Positions 4,834 to 24,062 of a stretch of 60,451 nucleotides of DNA are shown in pieces. The translations under genes were made by a program, and so were the position numbers. How positions within the stretch are numbered: the first letter of the stretch is position 1; each line of letters begins with the position of its first letter. The notes under the pieces are model-generated. The model did not search any database. It saw nothing but the letters and a program-made list of their open reading frames with translations, and was not told the DNA's origin. Source of the DNA: Gammaproteobacteria bacterium (lineage in GTDB: Bacteria; Pseudomonadota; Gammaproteobacteria; GCA-002705445; GCA-002716945). Location of the stretch: NCBI GenBank assembly GCA_029246085.1, contig JAQWOB010000011.1, positions 1 to 60,451 of the forward strand, read 5' to 3'.

Positions 4834-6269
4834 GTATTTTATTATCACATATTCTGTTTCTAGCTCTTAGTATAGTGATTATTTATCTGCTTAGAAAAGA
4901 AGCCTTTACCGGTATGGTTTCTATATTTATAAGTCTCGCATCTCTTGTATATGCTTTGTATATAATTAGCATACAAGATATCTTGATTAATCAAAAAACT
5001 GATATATTTAATATTATTCCAGGAATCCCATTATCATTTAGCTTAGATTATTTAGGTGTAATCTTTCTAGTTATCTCAAATGGACTATGGCTCATGGTAT
5101 CTATTTTTTCAGAAAGATATCTAGAATTAAATAAGTACCAAAACAAACCAAAATTTTATATATTTTTTACACTATCAATGCTAGCTACCAATGGGATTAT
5201 CTATTCATCTAATTTATTAACTACTTTTGTTTTTTATGAAATATTGACAATTGCTACATATCCACTTGTAACATTCAAAGGTGACAAAAAATCAATTATA
5301 AATGGTAAGAAATATTTATACTATTTACTCGGAACATCTATAATATTTTTCTTGCCAGCAATAATATTCACCTATATATTGACTGGGACTTTAGACTATA
5401 AAGTTGGCGGTATATTCACTAGTTATAATAATACTGCCATATACATTCTTATTATTTTATATTTATTTGGAATTGCCAAATCTGCAGTCATGCCATTTCA
5501 TAAATGGTTACCATCTGCAATGGTTGCACCAACACCAGTGAGCGCACTACTTCATGCTGTGGCTGTAGTTAAATCTGGAGTATTCATAATGTTAAAGGTT
5601 TTTTTATTCATATTTGGAGTAGATGTATTGACGCAGAGTGGCGCAAATATAATTATTATACTCTTTGCATCGTTTACGATTATATCATCATCCTTTATCG
5701 CTCTAAACCAAGATAATATTAAATTACGCTTAGCATATTCAACTATTGGCCAATTATCATATATAGTTTTAGCTACGGCAATTCTGGCGCCATATTCTAT
5801 TTTAGCTGCTGTTCTTCATTTAATATTTCATGCTTTAGGAAAAATAATGCTATTCCTTTCTGCCGGTATTATTGCAACACAGACAGGCATTAAAAATGTT
5901 AGTGAAATGAATAACCTTTCTTCAAAATTACCCATTACCTGTCTACTGATGACTATCGGTGCAATTATCATGATTGGTTTACCTCCAACAATTGGATTTA
6001 TTAGCAAGTGGTATTTATTACTTGGTATTATGGAATCAGAAAATTTATACTTACTTATTATAATCATCTTGAGTACATTGCTTAATGCAAGTTATTATTT
6101 TCCGATGATTTATAAATCATATTTTGAAAAAGCAAAATTTGACTACAAAAGTCCTAGCTGTGAAGATATGCCTCTAGCCTTTCCGGTGATTATTGTTGGA
6201 TTTATAGCAGTAATTCTTTTTTTCAAAACTGATTTTATTATAAAATTTATTACAGAGAATATTATTTAA
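4830..6269 (+). CDS. Antiporter-like subunit 2 (MrpD/NuoM family)
   Basis: 479 aa with the canonical AKSAVMPFHKWLPSAMVAPTPVSALLHAVAVVKSG. It overlaps subunit 1 by 4 nt. Confidence 0.88.
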   Translation: MSILLSHILFLALSIVIIYLLRKEAFTGMVSIFISLASLVYALYIISIQDILINQKTDIFNIIPGIPLSFSLDYLGVIFLVISNGLWLMVSIFSERYLELNKYQNKPKFYIFFTLSMLATNGIIYSSNLLTTFVFYEILTIATYPLVTFKGDKKSIINGKKYLYYLLGTSIIFFLPAIIFTYILTGTLDYKVGGIFTSYNNTAIYILIILYLFGIAKSAVMPFHKWLPSAMVAPTPVSALLHAVAVVKSGVFIMLKVFLFIFGVDVLTQSGANIIIILFASFTIISSSFIALNQDNIKLRLAYSTIGQLSYIVLATAILAPYSILAAVLHLIFHALGKIMLFLSAGIIATQTGIKNVSEMNNLSSKLPITCLLMTIGAIIMIGLPPTIGFISKWYLLLGIMESENLYLLIIIILSTLLNASYYFPMIYKSYFEKAKFDYKSPSCEDMPLAFPVIIVGFIAVILFFKTDFIIKFITENII

Positions 6270-17071: not shown

Positions 17072-18067
17072 TTAACCTATCTCTTTCTTTATATTATTAA
17101 GGGGCTCATTAAGTATAAAGGAGGCCACAAGGATTTCAAGTTTGTGCCAAACATTAAAGTTACCAAATCCTGTTTTAATCCTTCTGTCAATTACATAAGA
17201 AAATTCTATTAGGCCTAACAAATTATCGCTATTAGATTGACGTGACAAATTACTATATAAGATTTTTTTATGATTAGGAACATATGGTTGCGGTGACAAA
17301 TTATTTAATAAATAATATATTTTCTTAATTTCACTATTTATTAAAAATAATATATATACCTCTGGTGACTTTACTGATTCTAAATAATTTAATATCTTTA
17401 TAGCCTTAGCCACATTTAGTTCTAATATTGCATCAATTAAATCATACTCTGTAAACTTATATTCCTTTTGAAGATAATTAAAATAAACAGATATATCTGA
17501 TATATTCAATAAGGACATTTTATATAATTCTTGTGAAATTGAAGATGTGTTTCCCTCATTCTTCTGTATTAACTTTTTAAAAAGTTCATCACTATAGGTA
17601 ATATTATTTTTTTTGAACTTTTGTTTTACCCAGTTATTAAGGTGTATCCCCTTAAGTTCTGATATCTCTATAATGCATCCTTCTGAATTTAACATAGATA
17701 AAAATTTACCTCTTTTGAAAGCAGGGGTCTGCGGCCCTAATTTAATAATTAAATTTAAATCTTTAGGTGCCTTATTAATTAATAGATAATCAAGTAATTT
17801 TTTTGGGATAGTATTAGATACTACATTCAAAATAAGAGATTTTTTTTCTTCAAAAAGAGAATAACTTTCAAAGTCATCTCTTATTTCATAAATATCAAAG
17901 TCAGAATCAACCACTAAATGTTTTATAGAAGAGCCGCTTTTTTTAAAAAAAGACTCTAGTCTAGACTGAATATCATTCTGTAAATGATAAGGTTTTCCTA
18001 AAATCAAATAAATAGATGATTCTGGTATTTCTGGGCTATCAAAGAATTGTTTGTAACTAATTTTCAT
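17072..18067 (-). CDS. holA: DNA polymerase III delta subunit
   Basis: Sequence and length are HolA-like. I chose the ATG at 18065-18067 (MKISYKQFF..., 331 aa). The longer track ORF (to 18193) would overlap the divergent gene. The stop abuts the proA start with no gap. Confidence 0.7.
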   Translation of the reverse strand: MKISYKQFFDSPEIPESSIYLILGKPYHLQNDIQSRLESFFKKSGSSIKHLVVDSDFDIYEIRDDFESYSLFEEKKSLILNVVSNTIPKKLLDYLLINKAPKDLNLIIKLGPQTPAFKRGKFLSMLNSEGCIIEISELKGIHLNNWVKQKFKKNNITYSDELFKKLIQKNEGNTSSISQELYKMSLLNISDISVYFNYLQKEYKFTEYDLIDAILELNVAKAIKILNYLESVKSPEVYILFLINSEIKKIYYLLNNLSPQPYVPNHKKILYSNLSRQSNSDNLLGLIEFSYVIDRRIKTGFGNFNVWHKLEILVASFILNEPLNNIKKEIG

Positions 18068-18100
18068 ATGATAAATTCTATGGATTCTATACAATATATC

Positions 18101-18991
18101 ATGGATATAAAAAAAGCTCATAATGAAATTGGCTACATTGGCCTTGGTATAATGGGGAAACCCATGGTTAGAAACCTCATTACAGCAAAGCATAAGATTG
18201 TGTTTTATGCCAGAAAAGCTAATGTAATTAAAGAAATATCTTCTATAGGTGGCAGATATGCAGATAATATTCCTGAAATATCTAAATCATGTAAAATTAT
18301 ATTTTTAAACCTACCTGACTCGAATGATGTTCATGAGGTAATCTTTAGTAAAACAGGTTTAGTTTCCAACTTATCCAAAGGATCTATAATAATTGATATG
18401 AGCACAATCTCACCCGAAGTTACGAAAAAAATGGCAAAAAAATTAGAAAAGAAAAGTTGCTATTTGATTGATGCCCCAGTATCGGGAGGTGAGATTGGCG
18501 CAATCAATGGAAACTTATCGATCATGGTTGGTGGCAAAAAAAATGTATTTAATAAAATTAAGCACCTCCTATCAGTATTAGGCAACAATATAACATATAT
18601 AGGACATAGTGGATCAGGACAAGTTACGAAAGCATGCAATCAAATCCTCGTAGCGGGAACAATGGTATCGGTTAGTGAAATATTATTGCTAGCAAAAAAA
18701 TTAAAATGTGATTTAAATTTAGTGAAAAAAGCTTTAATGGGAGGATTTGCAAATAGTAAAATTCTTGATTTACATGGCGAGAGAATGATAAACAATGATT
18801 ATGAGCCTGGTTTTAAAGCAGGACTTCATTTAAAAGACTTGAATATTGCATTGAATTTATCAGATAAAGTTGGATTAAACCTTAAGAGTGCAAAATATAG
18901 TCAGGAACTAATGAAAATTGCTAATCAGAACAATGACCAAGATAAAGACTCATCTATAATTAATAAAATTATCATTAAGAATAAGAAATAA
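18101..18991 (+). CDS. NAD(P)-dependent 3-hydroxyisobutyrate / tartronate-semialdehyde dehydrogenase family oxidoreductase
   Basis: Rossmann N-terminus IGYIGLGIMGKPMVRNL, plus DAPVSGG and the GSGQVTKACNQ signature. The start is set at the ATG nearest the GxGxxG motif. Confidence 0.85.
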   Translation: MDIKKAHNEIGYIGLGIMGKPMVRNLITAKHKIVFYARKANVIKEISSIGGRYADNIPEISKSCKIIFLNLPDSNDVHEVIFSKTGLVSNLSKGSIIIDMSTISPEVTKKMAKKLEKKSCYLIDAPVSGGEIGAINGNLSIMVGGKKNVFNKIKHLLSVLGNNITYIGHSGSGQVTKACNQILVAGTMVSVSEILLLAKKLKCDLNLVKKALMGGFANSKILDLHGERMINNDYEPGFKAGLHLKDLNIALNLSDKVGLNLKSAKYSQELMKIANQNNDQDKDSSIINKIIIKNKK

Positions 18992-19009
18992 AGTGTTTAA
19001 TATTTAAAC

Positions 19010-19423
19010 ATGAAATTATATAATATCTCTATGAATATTAAATATTTGCTGAAAGATAAGAGTATAAATCCCACAAAACAGCGTTTAGAAATTGCTGAGC
19101 TTGTTTTTGCTAAAGATCAACATTTTACCGCAGTCCAGCTCATAGAACAGGTTAGAGATAAGAAGTTACCTATATCACAAGCAACCATATACAATACACT
19201 GTGTCTTTTTGAATCAACTGGATTGTTAAAAACTATTGATTTACAAAATGACTGTAAATTTTATGATACAAATTTACACTCACATCATCATATATATAAC
19301 ACTAGCACTAATGTACTAACCGATATAAGTACTGAGAAGATAGAATTCTCAAAAATTCCAAGTATTCCAGCTCACTTAGAGCTAGAACAAACGGAAGTAT
19401 TGATTAAAGTTAAAAATAAATAA
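19010..19423 (+). CDS. irr: Fur-family transcriptional regulator, Irr-like (no CxxC pairs, HHH motif)
   Basis: 137 aa. The winged-helix part is PTKQRLEIAELVF...ISQATIYNTL. FYDTNLHSHHHIY sits where Fur has HHHDH..C..C. There are no CxxC zinc motifs. An alternative start is ATG 19031. Confidence 0.75.
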   Translation: MKLYNISMNIKYLLKDKSINPTKQRLEIAELVFAKDQHFTAVQLIEQVRDKKLPISQATIYNTLCLFESTGLLKTIDLQNDCKFYDTNLHSHHHIYNTSTNVLTDISTEKIEFSKIPSIPAHLELEQTEVLIKVKNK

Positions 19424-19427
19424 TACT

Positions 19428-20009
19428 TTACTCAAAATCATTTAATAATGCAGATTTTGTTTCACTACCTATCTTTATATCACTAGAATAACTATCATGC
19501 GTGGCACCAAAAACAATATTATCAGAAGATTTAAATTTCTCTATGCTATCACTATCAAGTTGAAACCTTAAAAAGTGGACAGCTGATGTTTTTGCATCTC
19601 TAGTTCTTTCGAGATCTTCATCTGAAACTGCAAATATTCTTTTAGAATTATCAATACATAAATAAATACTATTTTCTAAGTCATGTAATTTTTTTAACAT
19701 AACCCTACGCTCTTCTATATCTGGATACATAATAAGCATTGTTGCTTTTAAATTATCTCCATCAGGTATCAATGACGTATAGGCTGAAATTTCCTCATTA
19801 ATATCTGATTCTTTGGATATCTTCTCAATTCTCAACATCTCATGAACCTGATACTTTATCGTATCAAAATCTTCAAATAATAATAATATATTTTCCCCAA
19901 TCATGATTGATCGGTTTTTTTTATGAAGCAATAAGTCAGACTTAATCTGTTCTCTTCCTTTCTCATAATCCTCTAATGATAATAAATTTTTATTTGTTAA
20001 CTCTTTCAT
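19428..20009 (-). CDS. DUF3501 family protein
   Basis: 193 aa. Motifs I remember from DUF3501 are present: LSLEDYEKGR, HKKNR, YQVHEMLRIE, LIPDGDNLKAT and KTSAVHFLRF. It lies 12 nt downstream of the Fe-S protein gene. Confidence 0.7.
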   Translation of the reverse strand: MKELTNKNLLSLEDYEKGREQIKSDLLLHKKNRSIMIGENILLLFEDFDTIKYQVHEMLRIEKISKESDINEEISAYTSLIPDGDNLKATMLIMYPDIEERRVMLKKLHDLENSIYLCIDNSKRIFAVSDEDLERTRDAKTSAVHFLRFQLDSDSIEKFKSSDNIVFGATHDSYSSDIKIGSETKSALLNDFE

Positions 20010-20021
20010 TTTATAATCTCC

Positions 20022-21332
20022 TTATTGTAATCCGTAAGCCTTTCTCATTAATTCAATTGGATGGGTAGGTAATACCTTATTCCCCATTGCGTTAACCACA
20101 TGATGTGCCGCTAATGTACAATCACTAGTGAATTGAGTTGACTGTAATTTTGTATATTCTTTAACTATCGGCATCGCAATCTTTATTGCTATCTCATGAG
20201 TTTCTTTTTTTACACCATACGTCCCATCATGACCAGAACACCTTTCTAAAGCATCTATATTTGTATTAGGGACAAGCTCAAGTATCTTTTTAGTTACCTG
20301 CCCTATGTTTTGTACTCTCTGATGGCAGGCTACTTGATAAAAAACAGAACCCAAATCATTTTTAAAATCCCTCTTTAATGTGCCTTCATTATAAAGTTTT
20401 AATAAGTATTCAAATGGATCACATATCGCCTTAGATACTAATTGTACATCCCTGTTTTCTGGGAAAAGTAGTGGGAGTTCTTGTTTAAACATCAGAACGC
20501 ATGAGGGAACTGGAGCGATGATTCTATAACCATCCTTAGCATATTTTTTAAATTTTAAAAGATTATGTTGCATCATTTTTTCTACAGTCTTAAGATCTCC
20601 TAATTCTAATTTAGGCATGCCACAACACTTATCATCTTTAATTAACTCCACATGAACATTGTTATGCTTTAATACTTTTACCAAGTCATCAATTACACTT
20701 GGTTCATTATAGTTATGATAACAAGTTGTAAATATTGCCACCTTATTATCCAAATTCATTTCATTTGAAATATTCTTATACTTAGATTTTGCGGTATAAG
20801 ACGAAAACTTTGGGAGTTTAGCATTTCTATGAATGCGTAAAATTTTTTCTAAAATTATTCTAAATATTTTTATTTCATTAAAATAATTTATGATAGGAGC
20901 TATTATTTTACGAGACCCTAATTTCCCTAACATATCTGTAGAAGTTAGAATTTTATCTCTAATTGAAGTCTTTGACTTACTATGTTTAATAGCCTTCCCT
21001 CTTAACATTAAATGAGGGAAATCTATACCCCAGTCATGCGGAGGCACATATGGACATTTTGTCAGGTAACATAAATCACAAAGGTAACAATGATCTATAA
21101 CCTTATCAAATTGATCATATGTAACACCATCAACTTCAAAAGTTTTAGATTCATCTATTAAGTCAAATAATGTTGGAAAAGAATTACACAGACTTACGCA
21201 CCGTCTACATCCATGACAGTGATCAGAAACTCTTCGTAACTCTTTTTCAAATAGTTCTTCGTTTAGATAATCTTGATTCTTCCAATCAATGCTAAATCTT
21301 GTTGGTTTTTGTAACCCACCTTCCATATTCAT
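20022..21332 (-). CDS. HdrD/GlpC-like (Fe-S)-binding protein with two ferredoxin-type motifs and CCG (DUF224) domains
   Basis: 436 aa with CHGCRRCVSLCNSFP and CYLCDLCYLTKCPYVPP. It has a CCGMP motif and a second, degenerate Cys-rich domain (CSGHDG ... SDC). Confidence 0.85.
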   Translation of the reverse strand: MNMEGGLQKPTRFSIDWKNQDYLNEELFEKELRRVSDHCHGCRRCVSLCNSFPTLFDLIDESKTFEVDGVTYDQFDKVIDHCYLCDLCYLTKCPYVPPHDWGIDFPHLMLRGKAIKHSKSKTSIRDKILTSTDMLGKLGSRKIIAPIINYFNEIKIFRIILEKILRIHRNAKLPKFSSYTAKSKYKNISNEMNLDNKVAIFTTCYHNYNEPSVIDDLVKVLKHNNVHVELIKDDKCCGMPKLELGDLKTVEKMMQHNLLKFKKYAKDGYRIIAPVPSCVLMFKQELPLLFPENRDVQLVSKAICDPFEYLLKLYNEGTLKRDFKNDLGSVFYQVACHQRVQNIGQVTKKILELVPNTNIDALERCSGHDGTYGVKKETHEIAIKIAMPIVKEYTKLQSTQFTSDCTLAAHHVVNAMGNKVLPTHPIELMRKAYGLQ

Positions 21333-21361
21333 TCTCCGTGAAATATAAGTAAGTCCTGAAA

Positions 21362-21388
21362 TGTCCCCTCAATAATATCAAGGGGACA
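21362..21388 (-). terminator. GC-rich hairpin between the rubrerythrin and Fe-S protein genes (partial terminator or mRNA-stabilising stem)
   Basis: TGTCCCCT (21362-21369) pairs with AGGGGACA (21381-21388) across an 11-nt loop. On the sense (minus) strand it is followed by AUUUC. It starts 9 nt after the rubrerythrin stop. Confidence 0.4.
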
Positions 21389-21396
21389 AATATTAT

Positions 21397-21816
21397 TTAT
21401 GCCATTGCTTCCAATGCTTTGGTAAACCTATTTGCATGTGAACGCTCAGCTTTTGCTAGTGTCTCAAACCAGTCAGCTATCTCATCAAAACCTTCGTCTC
21501 GAGCAGCTTTAGCCATACCAGGATACATGTCAGTGTATTCATGAGTTTCTCCTGCAATTGCAGCTTTCAAATTCATTTCACTGCTCCCTATTGGTTCACC
21601 AGTAGCTGGATCACCACACTCTTTCTCCAAATACTCTAAATGACCATGTGCATGTCCGGTCTCACCTTCAGCAGTAGACCTAAATACAGATGCCACATCA
21701 TTTTGTCCTTCAACATCAGCTTTTGCTGCGAAGTAAAGATATCTTCTATTTGCTTGTGATTCACCAGCAAATGCATCTTTAAGATTTTGTTCTGTTTTTG
21801 AACCTTTTAAACCCAT
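21397..21816 (-). CDS. Rubrerythrin-family diiron protein without a rubredoxin domain
   Basis: 139 aa four-helix-bundle protein with duplicated E...ExxH ligands (GESQAN...[10 protein letters not shown]; GETHEY...KAERSH). A strong SD (AAGGAG) precedes it. It is visibly more GC-rich than its neighbours. Confidence 0.9.
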
Positions 21817-21879
21817 AATATTTCTCCTTATTATTTAATAAATAATCTAAAATAGTTATTAACCAAGATTAATAAATCT

Positions 21880-21898
21880 ATTTAGAATCATTCTAAAT
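21880..21898. promoter_or_regulatory. Candidate Irr operator (iron control element, ICE)
   Basis: Perfect 19-bp palindrome ATTTAGAATCATTCTAAAT. Its core TTTAGAA-TCA-TTCTAAA equals the ICE consensus TTTAGAA-N3-TTCTAAA. It lies 64 nt upstream of the rubrerythrin ATG in the rbr/pyrD divergent spacer. Confidence 0.6.
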
Positions 21899-21947
21899 TT
21901 TATAATAATAAGTGTCAATAGTAATATGTTAAACTAACAAACATAAC

Positions 21948-21960
21948 AATGATTATCATT
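21948..21960. promoter_or_regulatory. Fur-box-like palindrome
   Basis: AATGATTATCATT is a perfect 6-1-6 inverted repeat. It is identical to the core of the classical Fur box (AATGAT-A-ATCATT) except for the unpaired centre. It lies 15 nt upstream of the pyrD ATG. Confidence 0.4.
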
Positions 21961-21974
21961 CTCAATTGCAAATT

Positions 21975-23003
21975 ATGAAAATATCAAAAAGCCTTTTTAG
22001 ACTATATAGAAATACTATATTCATGTTACCTGCTGAAACAGCTCATTCTGTTAGCTTGGCATCTGCAGAATTTTTATATAAATCATGGCTCAAAAATATG
22101 TTTATCGCAGATAGAAAAAGCATGCCAAATAAATTAATGGGGTTAAGTTTTCCTAATAAGCTAGGCTTAGCGGCAGGCTTTGATAAAAATGGAGACTATC
22201 TCAACTTTGATAATAATATTGGCTTAGGTTTTATTGAATTAGGCACTGTTACACCAAAAGCTCAATATGGAAATAGTAAACCAAGAATTTTTAGGTCTAT
22301 CAAAGATACTGCGATAATCAATCATCTTGGCTTTAATAATAAAGGAGTTCAGCACTTAAAAAATAACTTACAACTAATTGAACGGAATCAGCCTATAGGC
22401 ATTAATATTGGGAAAAATAGTAGCACAACAATTGAATTAGCTCATGAAGATTATCAGTACTGTATGAAGGAAATATTTTCTTTGGCTGACTATATAACAT
22501 TAAATATTTCTTCTCCAAACACATCTAGATTGAGAGAATTGCATTCTGATAATTATTTAGATACATTTCTTCATGAAATAAAAAAAACACATTCTGAGTT
22601 AACTAAAAAATATAAAAAAAGAGTCCCTTTAGTATTAAAGATTTCTCCAGATATTAAGGATAATGATTTAGAAATATTATGCAGAAAAATGCTAGATTAT
22701 GAAATAGACGGTGTAATAGCTACTAATACAACTATAGATAAAAACCTTCTTACAGATAAAAGTTATCTTAATAATAAAGGAGGGGTTAGCGGCAAGCCTC
22801 TTTTTAAAAAATCAAATATCTTGATAAAGAATATAAAAAATTTGGTTAAAGATAATATTATTATAGTCGGTGCTGGTGGTATTACATCAAAAGAATCAGC
22901 AGTTGAAAAATTAAGCTCAGGAGCTGACCTACTTCAGTTATATACTGGATTAGTATATTTTGGATTAGATTTAATTAAAGAAATTACCAGGGAAACTAAA
23001 TAA
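21975..23003 (+). CDS. pyrD: Dihydroorotate dehydrogenase (quinone), class 2
   Basis: Carries GLAAGFDKNG, GFIELGTVTPKAQYGNSKPRIFR, NISSPNT and GVIATNTT. The start is taken at the first ATG; the track ORF starts 9 nt earlier at TTG. Confidence 0.9.
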   Translation: MKISKSLFRLYRNTIFMLPAETAHSVSLASAEFLYKSWLKNMFIADRKSMPNKLMGLSFPNKLGLAAGFDKNGDYLNFDNNIGLGFIELGTVTPKAQYGNSKPRIFRSIKDTAIINHLGFNNKGVQHLKNNLQLIERNQPIGINIGKNSSTTIELAHEDYQYCMKEIFSLADYITLNISSPNTSRLRELHSDNYLDTFLHEIKKTHSELTKKYKKRVPLVLKISPDIKDNDLEILCRKMLDYEIDGVIATNTTIDKNLLTDKSYLNNKGGVSGKPLFKKSNILIKNIKNLVKDNIIIVGAGGITSKESAVEKLSSGADLLQLYTGLVYFGLDLIKEITRETK

Positions 23004-23004
23004 A

Positions 23005-23307
23005 TTATTTAGGAGTCCATTTTCCGAAAGAATCTTGTGCTGACTGAGGATTAGTTGATGCTTCGGGACCACTAGAACTTGTTCCAGCTTTGCGTTGCTC
23101 CTCATAAACATACTTAATGAAATCAATTAGTTGGCTTAAAATATCATTTTGGTCCTTTTCAGGTATTCCAGATGTAGCAACAATAGAACCTACTACTGCA
23201 GAAAGATACTGCGCTGCTAAAATAGGGTCTTCATTTTCAGGCTCATAATCAACCAAAACCTTTTGAAGGCCTTTAATTAACTCTGGTTTTAAAACAATCT
23301 CTGCCAT
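23005..23307 (-). CDS. Hypothetical 100-aa protein with a low-complexity Ser/Pro/Gln-rich tail
   Basis: The ORF fills the whole gap between the convergent pyrD and the divergent MBL gene. The N-terminal ~70 aa look helical and the C-terminus (AGTSSSGPEASTNPQSAQ) looks disordered. No family was recognised with confidence. Confidence 0.5.
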   Translation of the reverse strand: MAEIVLKPELIKGLQKVLVDYEPENEDPILAAQYLSAVVGSIVATSGIPEKDQNDILSQLIDFIKYVYEEQRKAGTSSSGPEASTNPQSAQDSFGKWTPK

Positions 23308-23363
23308 AATATTAGATAAGGGTATTTTTATTTGATTAAAGTATTACATAATTGAGGATGATC

Positions 23364-24062
23364 ATGCAACCATTAAAACAATCATATGCGATTAAAACAT
23401 TTGATGTAGGCCCGATGCAAAATCTAATTTATCTGATAACTGACCTAGAAACCCGTCAAACAGCAATTATAGACCCTGCCTGGGATATATCTAGTGTAAA
23501 TAATTATATTAAGGACAATCAATTAGTTCTAAAAAAAATACTTTTAACCCATAGTCACCATGATCATATAAATTCTATTGACAAGATATTAGCTGTCCAT
23601 GATATTGAGATATTCTTGAATTATAAAGAAAAAATTTTTTGGGGAAAAGAGTATGATAATTTTGTGGTAAATCATGGAGGTGACATAATTGAACTTGGGT
23701 CAACAAAAATTAAATCAATACATACTCCTGGTCATACTCCAGGTTCCACATGTTATTATGTTGGAGATAAATTAATAGCCGGAGATACTCTTTTTGTATT
23801 TGGATGTGGAAGATGCGATCTGCATGGAGGAAATCCTGAAGAAATGTTTGAGACTTTAAAAAATCTTAAATCATCACTAGATAAAAATACAATAATATTG
23901 CCTGGACATGATTACTCGGTTAAAAAAGAATCCACTATAGAAGAACAAATAACTGGGAATCCTTTTATGCATTTTCAAGATATAAATAAGTTTATAGAAT
24001 ATAGAATGCATACTCATGATAAAATTAGAGTCTCACCATATGATTCAATATGCAAAACCTAA
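23364..24062 (+). CDS. MBL-fold metallo-hydrolase (GloB / ETHE1-like)
   Basis: Carries THSHHDH, HTPGHTPGS, GDTLFVFGCGRCD and PGHDY. The start is chosen at the ATG 7 nt after GAGGA; the track ORF starts at TTG 23352. Confidence 0.85.
   Translation: MQPLKQSYAIKTFDVGPMQNLIYLITDLETRQTAIIDPAWDISSVNNYIKDNQLVLKKILLTHSHHDHINSIDKILAVHDIEIFLNYKEKIFWGKEYDNFVVNHGGDIIELGSTKIKSIHTPGHTPGSTCYYVGDKLIAGDTLFVFGCGRCDLHGGNPEEMFETLKNLKSSLDKNTIILPGHDYSVKKESTIEEQITGNPFMHFQDINKFIEYRMHTHDKIRVSPYDSICKT

Follow-up and report, generated by a model that had tools for sequence, protein, structure and literature searches.

A 60,451-nucleotide stretch of a gammaproteobacterial genome (assembly GCA_029246085.1, contig JAQWOB010000011.1; the whole stretch is called the window below) carries a perfect 19-bp palindrome of the iron control element (ICE) type ahead of a rubrerythrin operon, and encodes an Irr-like regulator of the Fur family beside the last gene of that operon. 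We propose that a dimer of the Irr-like protein represses the operon, rbr-RFO-DUF3501, by binding the palindrome across the -10 hexamer and the transcription start of the predicted promoter. To this account, in which binding, repression and signal are what we infer, we assign a probability of roughly 0.65. The palindrome itself is a real element. Feature coordinates are collected in Table 1.

Could such a site arise by chance in a genome of this composition? An earlier reading of the window, made from the sequence only, had reported a perfect 19-bp palindrome 64 nt from the rubrerythrin ATG, with a core that fits the ICE consensus in full. The palindrome ATTTAGAATCATTCTAAAT is present, its edge lies 64 nt from the rbr ATG (21816, minus strand), and its 17-bp core (21881-21897) is the sole perfect match to TTTAGAA-N3-TTCTAAA in the window. 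The core also fits the refined ICE consensus TTTRGAAYNRTTCYAAA at 17/17 positions (Rodionov et al. 2006, PMC1698941), and the palindrome contains a 7-1-7 inverted repeat, TTAGAAT-C-ATTCTAA. Background frequency, which the same reading had named as a possible refutation, does not account for the site: a single perfect match stands in the window, none of 100 dinucleotide-preserving shuffles contains one, and the chance expectation, estimated from ~30% GC, is about 0.005 per window. Sites with up to two mismatches are weakly enriched in the window (7 against 2.4 expected), a number that was reached in 3 of 100 shuffles.

The palindrome lies in the spacer that separates minus-strand rbr from plus-strand pyrD. 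A length of 149 bp, as given by the sequence-only reading, applies to this spacer if pyrD starts at TTG 21966; the alternative start, ATG 21975, is favoured by the relatives and by the NCBIfam match and makes it 158 bp. A promoter scan places the best sigma-70-like promoter of the spacer on the rbr strand (TTGACA-N17-TAGAAT, 11/12). Its -10 hexamer falls inside the palindrome, and transcription is predicted to start about 7 nt past that hexamer, near 21883, within the promoter-distal half-site. Since the predicted -10 box and start are both contained in the palindrome, a bound dimer would occlude the -10/+1 region. Overlap with the predicted -10 box upstream of rbr gives the site the promoter position of an ICE before an iron- or oxidative-stress gene.

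Is the site kept where the DNA around it is not? Conservation in the rbr upstream regions of relatives, which the sequence-only reading had proposed as a check, was found in all 11 loci that reach this region: ICE is present there with 0-1 mismatch, at regulator identities down to 64%, and regulator gene and site occur together in every locus (11/11). In the related loci L001-L007 it stands at the same place with 0-1 mismatch, and in L135, L136 and L138 it is perfect. An anchored, gap-free comparison of 11 distinct orthologous sequences finds invariant 6/6 positions of the -35 hexamer and 17/19 of the palindrome, 3/14 of the promoter spacer outside the palindrome, 2/25 of the 25-nt upstream flank and 1/35 of the 35-nt downstream flank. 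Variation within the palindrome is limited to its centre and to one of its two end bases. The 17-nt spacing between -35 and -10 is constant in all loci despite a varying spacer sequence. Promoter function cannot explain the distal half-site ATTCTAAAT, which is invariant though it lies downstream of the -10 box. Taken together, the alignment supports the palindrome as an island of conservation that behaves as a putative operator. No further site with one mismatch or fewer was found in the ~120 kb of flanking DNA within L001-L007.

What kind of protein is the neighbouring regulator? Its gene is convergent with the DUF3501 gene, 4 nt from the DUF3501 stop codon, and its end lies 2.46 kb from the palindrome; most relatives begin at the Met that corresponds to 19031 and are thus 130 aa long. 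The protein matches PF01475, the Fur-family fold, at 66.6 bits, well placed over the cut-off of 23.1. Its top two NCBIfam models are IrrA (NF045678, 112.1 bits, cut-off 150) and Irr (NF045677, 108.4 bits, cut-off 170), followed by PerRA as third best (83.6 bits, cut-off 200), while PerRB reaches 62.9 bits (cut-off 250); none of these cut-offs is reached, and both PerR models score under the Irr models. The Irr and IrrA cut-offs are strict: the rhizobial-type protein P0254 passes them (196/183), and AT-rich alphaproteobacterial SAR11-type Irr proteins with fabA synteny, whose genes have ICE sites beside them, fail (136-143). Of the earlier claim that an Irr-like Fur-family gene lies 2.4 kb away, the likeness is borne out by the best matches, Irr and IrrA, and by an HHH motif; the score stays under the NCBIfam Irr cut-offs.

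The HHH motif, H92-H93-H94 in 'HSHHHIY', has its outer two histidines invariant in 140 family members, and HxH is the haem-binding motif of Irr (PMC7762939). Residues H38, D86, H92, H94 and D105 align with H37, D85, H91, H93 and D104 of PerR and are (near-)invariant in the same 140 members; this alignment was anchored on PerR (B. subtilis) and Fur sequences. The Cys4 zinc site is absent, the positions of PerR C96/C99 being N/T and the C-terminal CxxC missing, and so is the Cys-Pro haem regulatory motif. A bona fide Irr (P0254) keeps the same His/Asp residues; the His3Asp2 site, common to bona fide Irr, therefore does not discriminate between an Irr and a PerR reading. In a PDB sequence search the nearest solved structure was Leptospira PerR 5NL9, also without the Cys4 site; no Irr crystal structure was returned by that search, and a 2020 review states that none exists (PMC7762939). 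Automatic pipelines label such proteins "Fur family iron response transcriptional regulator". Alphaproteobacterial irr is divergent from fabA-fabB-fabI. This synteny was not found in the window, where the irr-like gene follows a garR-like dehydrogenase gene and converges with DUF3501; the fabA-side arrangement of alpha type was observed in L013, L014 and L092. As judged from its sequence, the regulator is a member of the Irr/PerR-like branch, nearest to Irr, and the signal that it senses is not given by the sequence.

ICE boxes recur before related genes in other genomes. In L092 (33% GC, fabA-irr synteny) one perfect and two 1-mismatch boxes (1866-1948) precede rbr-RFO, the Rbr is 84% identical to that of the window, and the wiring agrees with the minimal Irr-to-rubrerythrin regulon predicted for Pelagibacter ubique (Rodionov et al. 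2006, PMC1698941). The AT-rich alpha-type loci L013 (1287-1303) and L014 (6448-6464) each have one ICE-like palindrome between irr and katG; the one in L014 overlaps a putative -10 box or comes right after it. In an environmental sample of perfect ICE sites with 120 matches listed, the genes that follow the site include, among the matches listed, sufS (4 loci), mbfA-like (3), rbr (2), irr-like (2), bfr and katG, which are known Irr targets; also among the matches listed, a T-N-A centre, which makes the 7-1-7 repeat, is enriched (49/121 sites against 11 expected). Perfect ICE-type palindromes were further found directly upstream of Fur-family genes in L126 (4331-4347) and L094 (6701-6717). The top models for these two genes are, in turn, Leptospira-type PerRB (159 bits) and a PerR (100 bits), and their boxes suggest autoregulation. 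Since boxes stand before PerR/PerRB-like genes as well, the ICE motif is not exclusive to Irr and is shared within the Irr/PerR-like branch.

Two families of open reading frames (ORFs) without obvious function occur immediately after perfect ICE sites, one of 168 aa (L084, L099, L101, L119) and one of 96 aa (L023, L053, L058); their contigs are marine, with 35-47% GC. In L077 (30% GC) a sufS-like gene starts only 9 nt past the end of the perfect ICE TTTAGAATCATTCTAAA at 5157-5173, which may mark a further target, in a marine lineage with an AT-rich genome.

How would repression by the Irr-like protein work? A regulator dimer would bind the 7-1-7 repeat, covering the -10 box and the expected transcription start, and would block RNA polymerase, so that the rbr-RFO-DUF3501 operon is shut off. 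The operon encodes an iron-rich, peroxide-scavenging rubrerythrin module of the aerobic type. By analogy with characterised Irr, scarcity of iron or haem would leave the apo-protein on the DNA, so that iron is spared, and haem binding at HHH would release the operator. Degradation of the kind that depends on a haem regulatory motif is an unlikely route, because the regulator is without the Cys-Pro motif. The 5' end of R. sphaeroides mbfA maps inside its Irr-box, fitting repression, and in B. japonicum both bfr and the rubrerythrin-like gene blr7895 are under Irr repression (PMC3413700); the precedent of mbfA, bfr and blr7895 thus lends experimental support to the repression geometry proposed here.

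Several observations weigh against this account. Pelagibacter rbr mRNA goes up 1.57-fold under iron limitation, the opposite of simple Irr repression (PMC2864753). The regulator falls short of the NCBIfam cut-offs for IrrA and Irr (112 vs 150 and 108 vs 170), its nearest solved structure is that of a PerR (5NL9), and its His3Asp2 site is equally the peroxide-sensing site of PerR. ICE-type palindromes also precede PerR-/PerRB-like genes, so the operator does not identify the signal. A single target is visible in ~60 kb of genome. What is retained of the Irr-type iron control put forward in the sequence-only reading is an operator-like site, an Irr-like neighbour and a rubrerythrin target; iron or haem as the signal is a proposal that competes with peroxide, given the ICE sites before PerR/PerRB-like genes.

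Might the same repressor respond to peroxide? In this alternative the operator and the occlusion of the promoter are unchanged and the regulator is a PerR-type peroxide sensor: Fe(II) held in the His3Asp2 site would react with H2O2, a ligand histidine would be oxidised, the repressor would leave and the rubrerythrin module would be induced, with iron or haem status counting only indirectly. We regard this as rather unlikely, and as the alternative that survives best. The target is a peroxidase module (PMC5114695), and katG and rbr are adjacent targets of the alpha-type relatives. The five residues of the PerR regulatory site align in the regulator, with B. subtilis PerR as the anchor, and are (near-)invariant in the 140 members; the best structure match is 5NL9 from Leptospira, a PerR also without Cys4; PerRA ranks third among the NCBIfam models, at 84 bits; and PerR/PerRB-like genes are immediately preceded by ICE-type boxes. 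The palindrome differs by one base per half-site from the Per box of B. subtilis, TTATAAT-N-ATTATAA. However, the Irr and IrrA models beat PerRA and PerRB by ~25-50 bits and the site is an exact ICE fit, not a Per box, while the His/Asp residues, shared by the bona fide Irr P0254, do not discriminate.

It is very improbable that the palindrome is bound by another Fur-family protein (Fur, Zur or a paralogue) encoded elsewhere and that the Irr-like gene is its neighbour by chance. The 7-1-7 architecture is generic for Fur-family operators, and a Fur-box-like site (16/19) lies 47 bp from the palindrome in the same spacer, where a second Fur-family protein probably acts. Yet regulator gene, module and site are linked in all loci, deeply diverged ones included; the sequence agrees with the ICE consensus, not with a Fur box; and independent alpha-type loci place irr beside an ICE-preceded rbr or katG. 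That the palindrome is no operator at all, kept for its -10 hexamer or for some DNA or RNA structure, is scarcely credible: TAGAAT does lie within it and AT-rich genomes yield many imperfect palindromes (the 7 sites with up to two mismatches against 2.4 expected), but a -10 box accounts for 6 invariant bases and not for 17/19, the distal half-site is invariant where promoters are unconstrained, a perfect match appeared in 0/100 shuffles, and the same motif occupies rbr, katG and irr promoters of unrelated genomes.

Repression by the Irr-like protein would place Irr and ICE in a host where the literature does not have them, since both are described as essentially alphaproteobacterial (PMC1698941; PMC7762939). 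Is the host truly a gammaproteobacterium, and could the module be a recent import? The window backbone runs miaB-phoH-ybeY-corC-lnt-leuS-lptE-(module)-holA-proA-nadD...yhdP-x-tldD, which we take, from the E. coli and Pseudomonas maps, to be a gammaproteobacterial order. Seven genome records of related loci carry Gammaproteobacteria labels, as do the cluster-mates of LeuS, EF-G, UvrA, RpoC, RpoA, SecY, TldD, MiaB and PyrD, two evident mis-binnings apart. Gene order and housekeeping protein labels support the gammaproteobacterial backbone claimed by the sequence-only reading. Assignment of the window to SAR11, an alphaproteobacterial group, is ruled out by the labels on the housekeeping proteins and related records together with the gene order. 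From the marine source, the ~30% GC and the class label we infer a "SAR86-like" host.

Between holA and lptE, direct neighbours in E. coli and Pseudomonas, lies a block of eight genes (18047-24062): garR-like, irr-like, DUF3501, RFO, rbr, pyrD, a 100-aa protein and an MBL-fold hydrolase. Their order is fixed in all relatives, even at identities of ~36% for HolA, ~61% for LeuS and ~64% for Irr. A block that is syntenic across such deeply diverged relatives is therefore old in the lineage; as far as sequence comparison can tell, the module is an old possession, kept vertically in this gammaproteobacterial lineage, and not a recent import. Recent horizontal transfer from SAR11 or another alphaproteobacterium is ruled out by the identical synteny at HolA ~36% and LeuS ~61%, and is further disfavoured by an identity of at most ~45% between the regulator and full-length proteins outside its clade, among 1.84 billion representatives.

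The regulator clade has a single full-length member among these representatives. The next full-length relatives are 35-45% identical, and those examined are all Irr-like by NCBIfam. At least 7978 proteins were returned by an outgroup profile search; six of them carry organism names, every one Gammaproteobacteria or Chromatiales, and Irr-like outgroup genes sit in the typical gammaproteobacterial context ileS-lspA-fkpB-ispH-pil. This is an indication that Irr-like proteins are common in Gammaproteobacteria. A neighbour-joining tree of 142 Irr-like proteins is bush-like and gives no reliable sister group for the window clade, which stands by itself, apart from the PerR and Fur anchors. Near the Irr-like genes of GC-rich Chromatiales-type gammaproteobacteria (20 kb per genome), no ICE with three or fewer mismatches was found in three loci; L012 had two 3-mismatch sites. 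The trio of regulator, operator and target had been called alphaproteobacterial-looking and unexpected before. Unexpected it is, set against what is in print; an import it is not, in view of the synteny, the 35-45% identity and the gamma-labelled nearest group.

The predicted target is a recognised module. Cardenas et al. 2016 (PMC5114695) reported RBR-RFO-DUF3501, the rubrerythrin module of the aerobic type, from Alpha-, Beta- and Gammaproteobacteria, and the name RFO and the co-occurrence of DUF3501 with aerobic-type rbr come from that paper, which does not treat regulation of the module ('regulat' count 0). In the window, a rubredoxin-less Rbr (PF02915 alone), PF12007 and PF02754 are contiguous on one strand. 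Rbr scores 102 bits with PF02915 and 130 bits with NF045767, covering the di-iron domain only; RFO scores 227 bits with the GlpC model, under the cut-off of that model. Across relatives in which LeuS is ~61% and HolA ~36% identical, Rbr is ~95% identical, with third codon positions 50-60% identical. Such third positions attribute the high identity of Rbr to extreme purifying selection and not to recent transfer. The hairpin just past the rbr stop was found in 8/8 loci with differing stem sequences, and in L004 and L006 it is followed by a U-run. Partial termination or mRNA stabilisation is its probable role, which would uncouple the level of rbr from that of RFO and DUF3501 and suggests expression of rbr above the other two.

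Table 1. Features of the regulator-operator-target region of the window and neighbouring features.
Feature	Position	Strand	Basis or remark
19-bp perfect palindrome ATTTAGAATCATTCTAAAT, predicted ICE-type operator	21880-21898	none	read directly in sequence
Irr-like Fur-family regulator, 137 aa	19010-19423	+	NCBIfam, motif alignment
-35 hexamer TTGACA, predicted rbr operon promoter	21913-21918	-	promoter scan; invariant in 11 loci
-10 hexamer TAGAAT, predicted rbr operon promoter	21890-21895	-	promoter scan; inside palindrome
rbr, aerobic-type rubrerythrin, 139 aa, without rubredoxin domain	21397-21816	-	PF02915, NF045767
GC-rich stem-loop just past rbr stop	21362-21388	-	12-bp stem, RNA fold; genome 30% GC
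RFO, 436-aa GlpC/HdrD-like CCG-domain Fe-S protein	20022-21332	-	PF02754 CCG
DUF3501 protein, third gene of the module	19428-20009	-	PF12007 at 203 bits
Conserved extended -10 element TGnTAAACT, likely pyrD promoter	21927-21935	+	back to back with rbr -35
Fur-box-like site GAGAATGATAATCATTGTT	21945-21963	-	16/19 to GATAATGATAATCATTATC; highest-scoring Fur-box match in the window
100-aa ORF between pyrD and the MBL-fold gene	23005-23307	-	58-99% identity, same place, all relatives

Some observations concern the remainder of the spacer and the flanking genes. The likely pyrD extended -10 element is kept as TGTTAAACT or TGATAAACT among the loci inspected. The Fur-box-like site, 47 bp from the palindrome, follows closely after the putative pyrD promoter and precedes the predicted rbr start by ~70 nt; it is similar in L003 and L135, weaker in L004-L007, and none was seen in L138. 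It may reflect dual control by Fur and the Irr-like protein; alternatively, Fur may act on pyrD, although an enzyme without iron would be an odd target. In L135 and L136 (7368-7859) the source gene caller lengthens rbr to 163 aa, over the ICE and the promoter; judged by the 139-aa orthologues, its start codon was called too far upstream. Neither Pfam nor NCBIfam gives a match to the 100-aa ORF that separates pyrD from the MBL-fold gene.

What would the proposed circuit mean beyond this locus? It gives an abundant marine lineage of uncultured Gammaproteobacteria a conserved trio of regulator, operator and target, and draws attention to a very large pool of gamma-labelled Irr-like proteins. It offers a first specific regulatory hypothesis for the widespread, uncharacterised RBR-RFO-DUF3501 module, and, as a system of one site and one operon, would suit the question of haem versus peroxide for Irr/PerR-like sensors. 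In ocean metatranscriptomes, the rbr transcript of this lineage is also a candidate marker of iron or oxidative stress, as a counterpart to that of SAR11. Quite tentatively, Irr-like/ICE pairs might represent an old, widespread proteobacterial (perhaps wider) branch of the Fur family between PerR and Irr, ancestrally gating iron-rich peroxide-detoxifying enzymes such as the aerobic rubrerythrin module, KatG and cytochrome c peroxidase, with the global, haem-sensing Irr of rhizobia as a later enlargement of that small regulon. If this were true, the SAR11-type alphaproteobacteria and the SAR86-like gammaproteobacterial lineage, the two most abundant streamlined lineages of ocean heterotrophs, would both keep the minimal ancestral circuit.

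How does the window compare with known systems? Our literature search found no paper that links Irr to SAR86 or describes a gammaproteobacterial Irr. With the alphaproteobacterial Irr/ICE systems of Bradyrhizobium, Rhizobium and Rhodobacter the window shares a Fur-family regulator that lacks Cys4 and carries an HxH/HHH motif, a palindromic operator of 17 bp with the form TTTRGAAYNRTTCYAAA over the promoter or start of repressed genes, and rubrerythrin-like and peroxide- or iron-related targets (PMC1698941, PMC3413700, PMC7762939). Unlike them, it has a gammaproteobacterial host and a regulator that is ~35-43% identical to alphaproteobacterial Irr and below the NCBIfam equivalog cut-offs, it lacks fabA-irr synteny and the Cys-Pro motif, one target is visible, and a haem response would follow only by analogy. 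A close parallel in design is the circuit predicted for Pelagibacter ubique (PMC1698941), likewise a marine bacterium with a streamlined, AT-rich genome, where one regulator of the Irr type is paired with one rubrerythrin operon under ICE control. In the alpha type, as seen in L092, irr lies beside fabA and three ICE-like boxes precede rbr, whereas in the window irr converges with the last operon gene and there is one box; since the window and alpha-type regulators are ~35% identical, what they have in common is shared wiring and not recent transfer.

The same rubredoxin-less Rbr, CCG-domain Fe-S oxidoreductase and DUF3501 make up the module of Cardenas et al., to which, unlike that account (PMC5114695), we assign a specific candidate operator and regulator. 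PerR, especially Leptospira PerRA/PerRB (5NL9), resembles the window system in its His3Asp2 site, the lack of a structural zinc site, a 7-1-7 AT-rich operator and peroxide-detoxifying targets, but the window regulator scores lower as PerR than as Irr (84 vs 112 bits) and its operator is an ICE, not a Per box. All parts are of known kinds; new are the host class, the link of operator and regulator to RBR-RFO-DUF3501, and the indication that Gammaproteobacteria widely carry Irr-like proteins. The novelty is taxonomic and evolutionary, and the known mechanism is unchanged.

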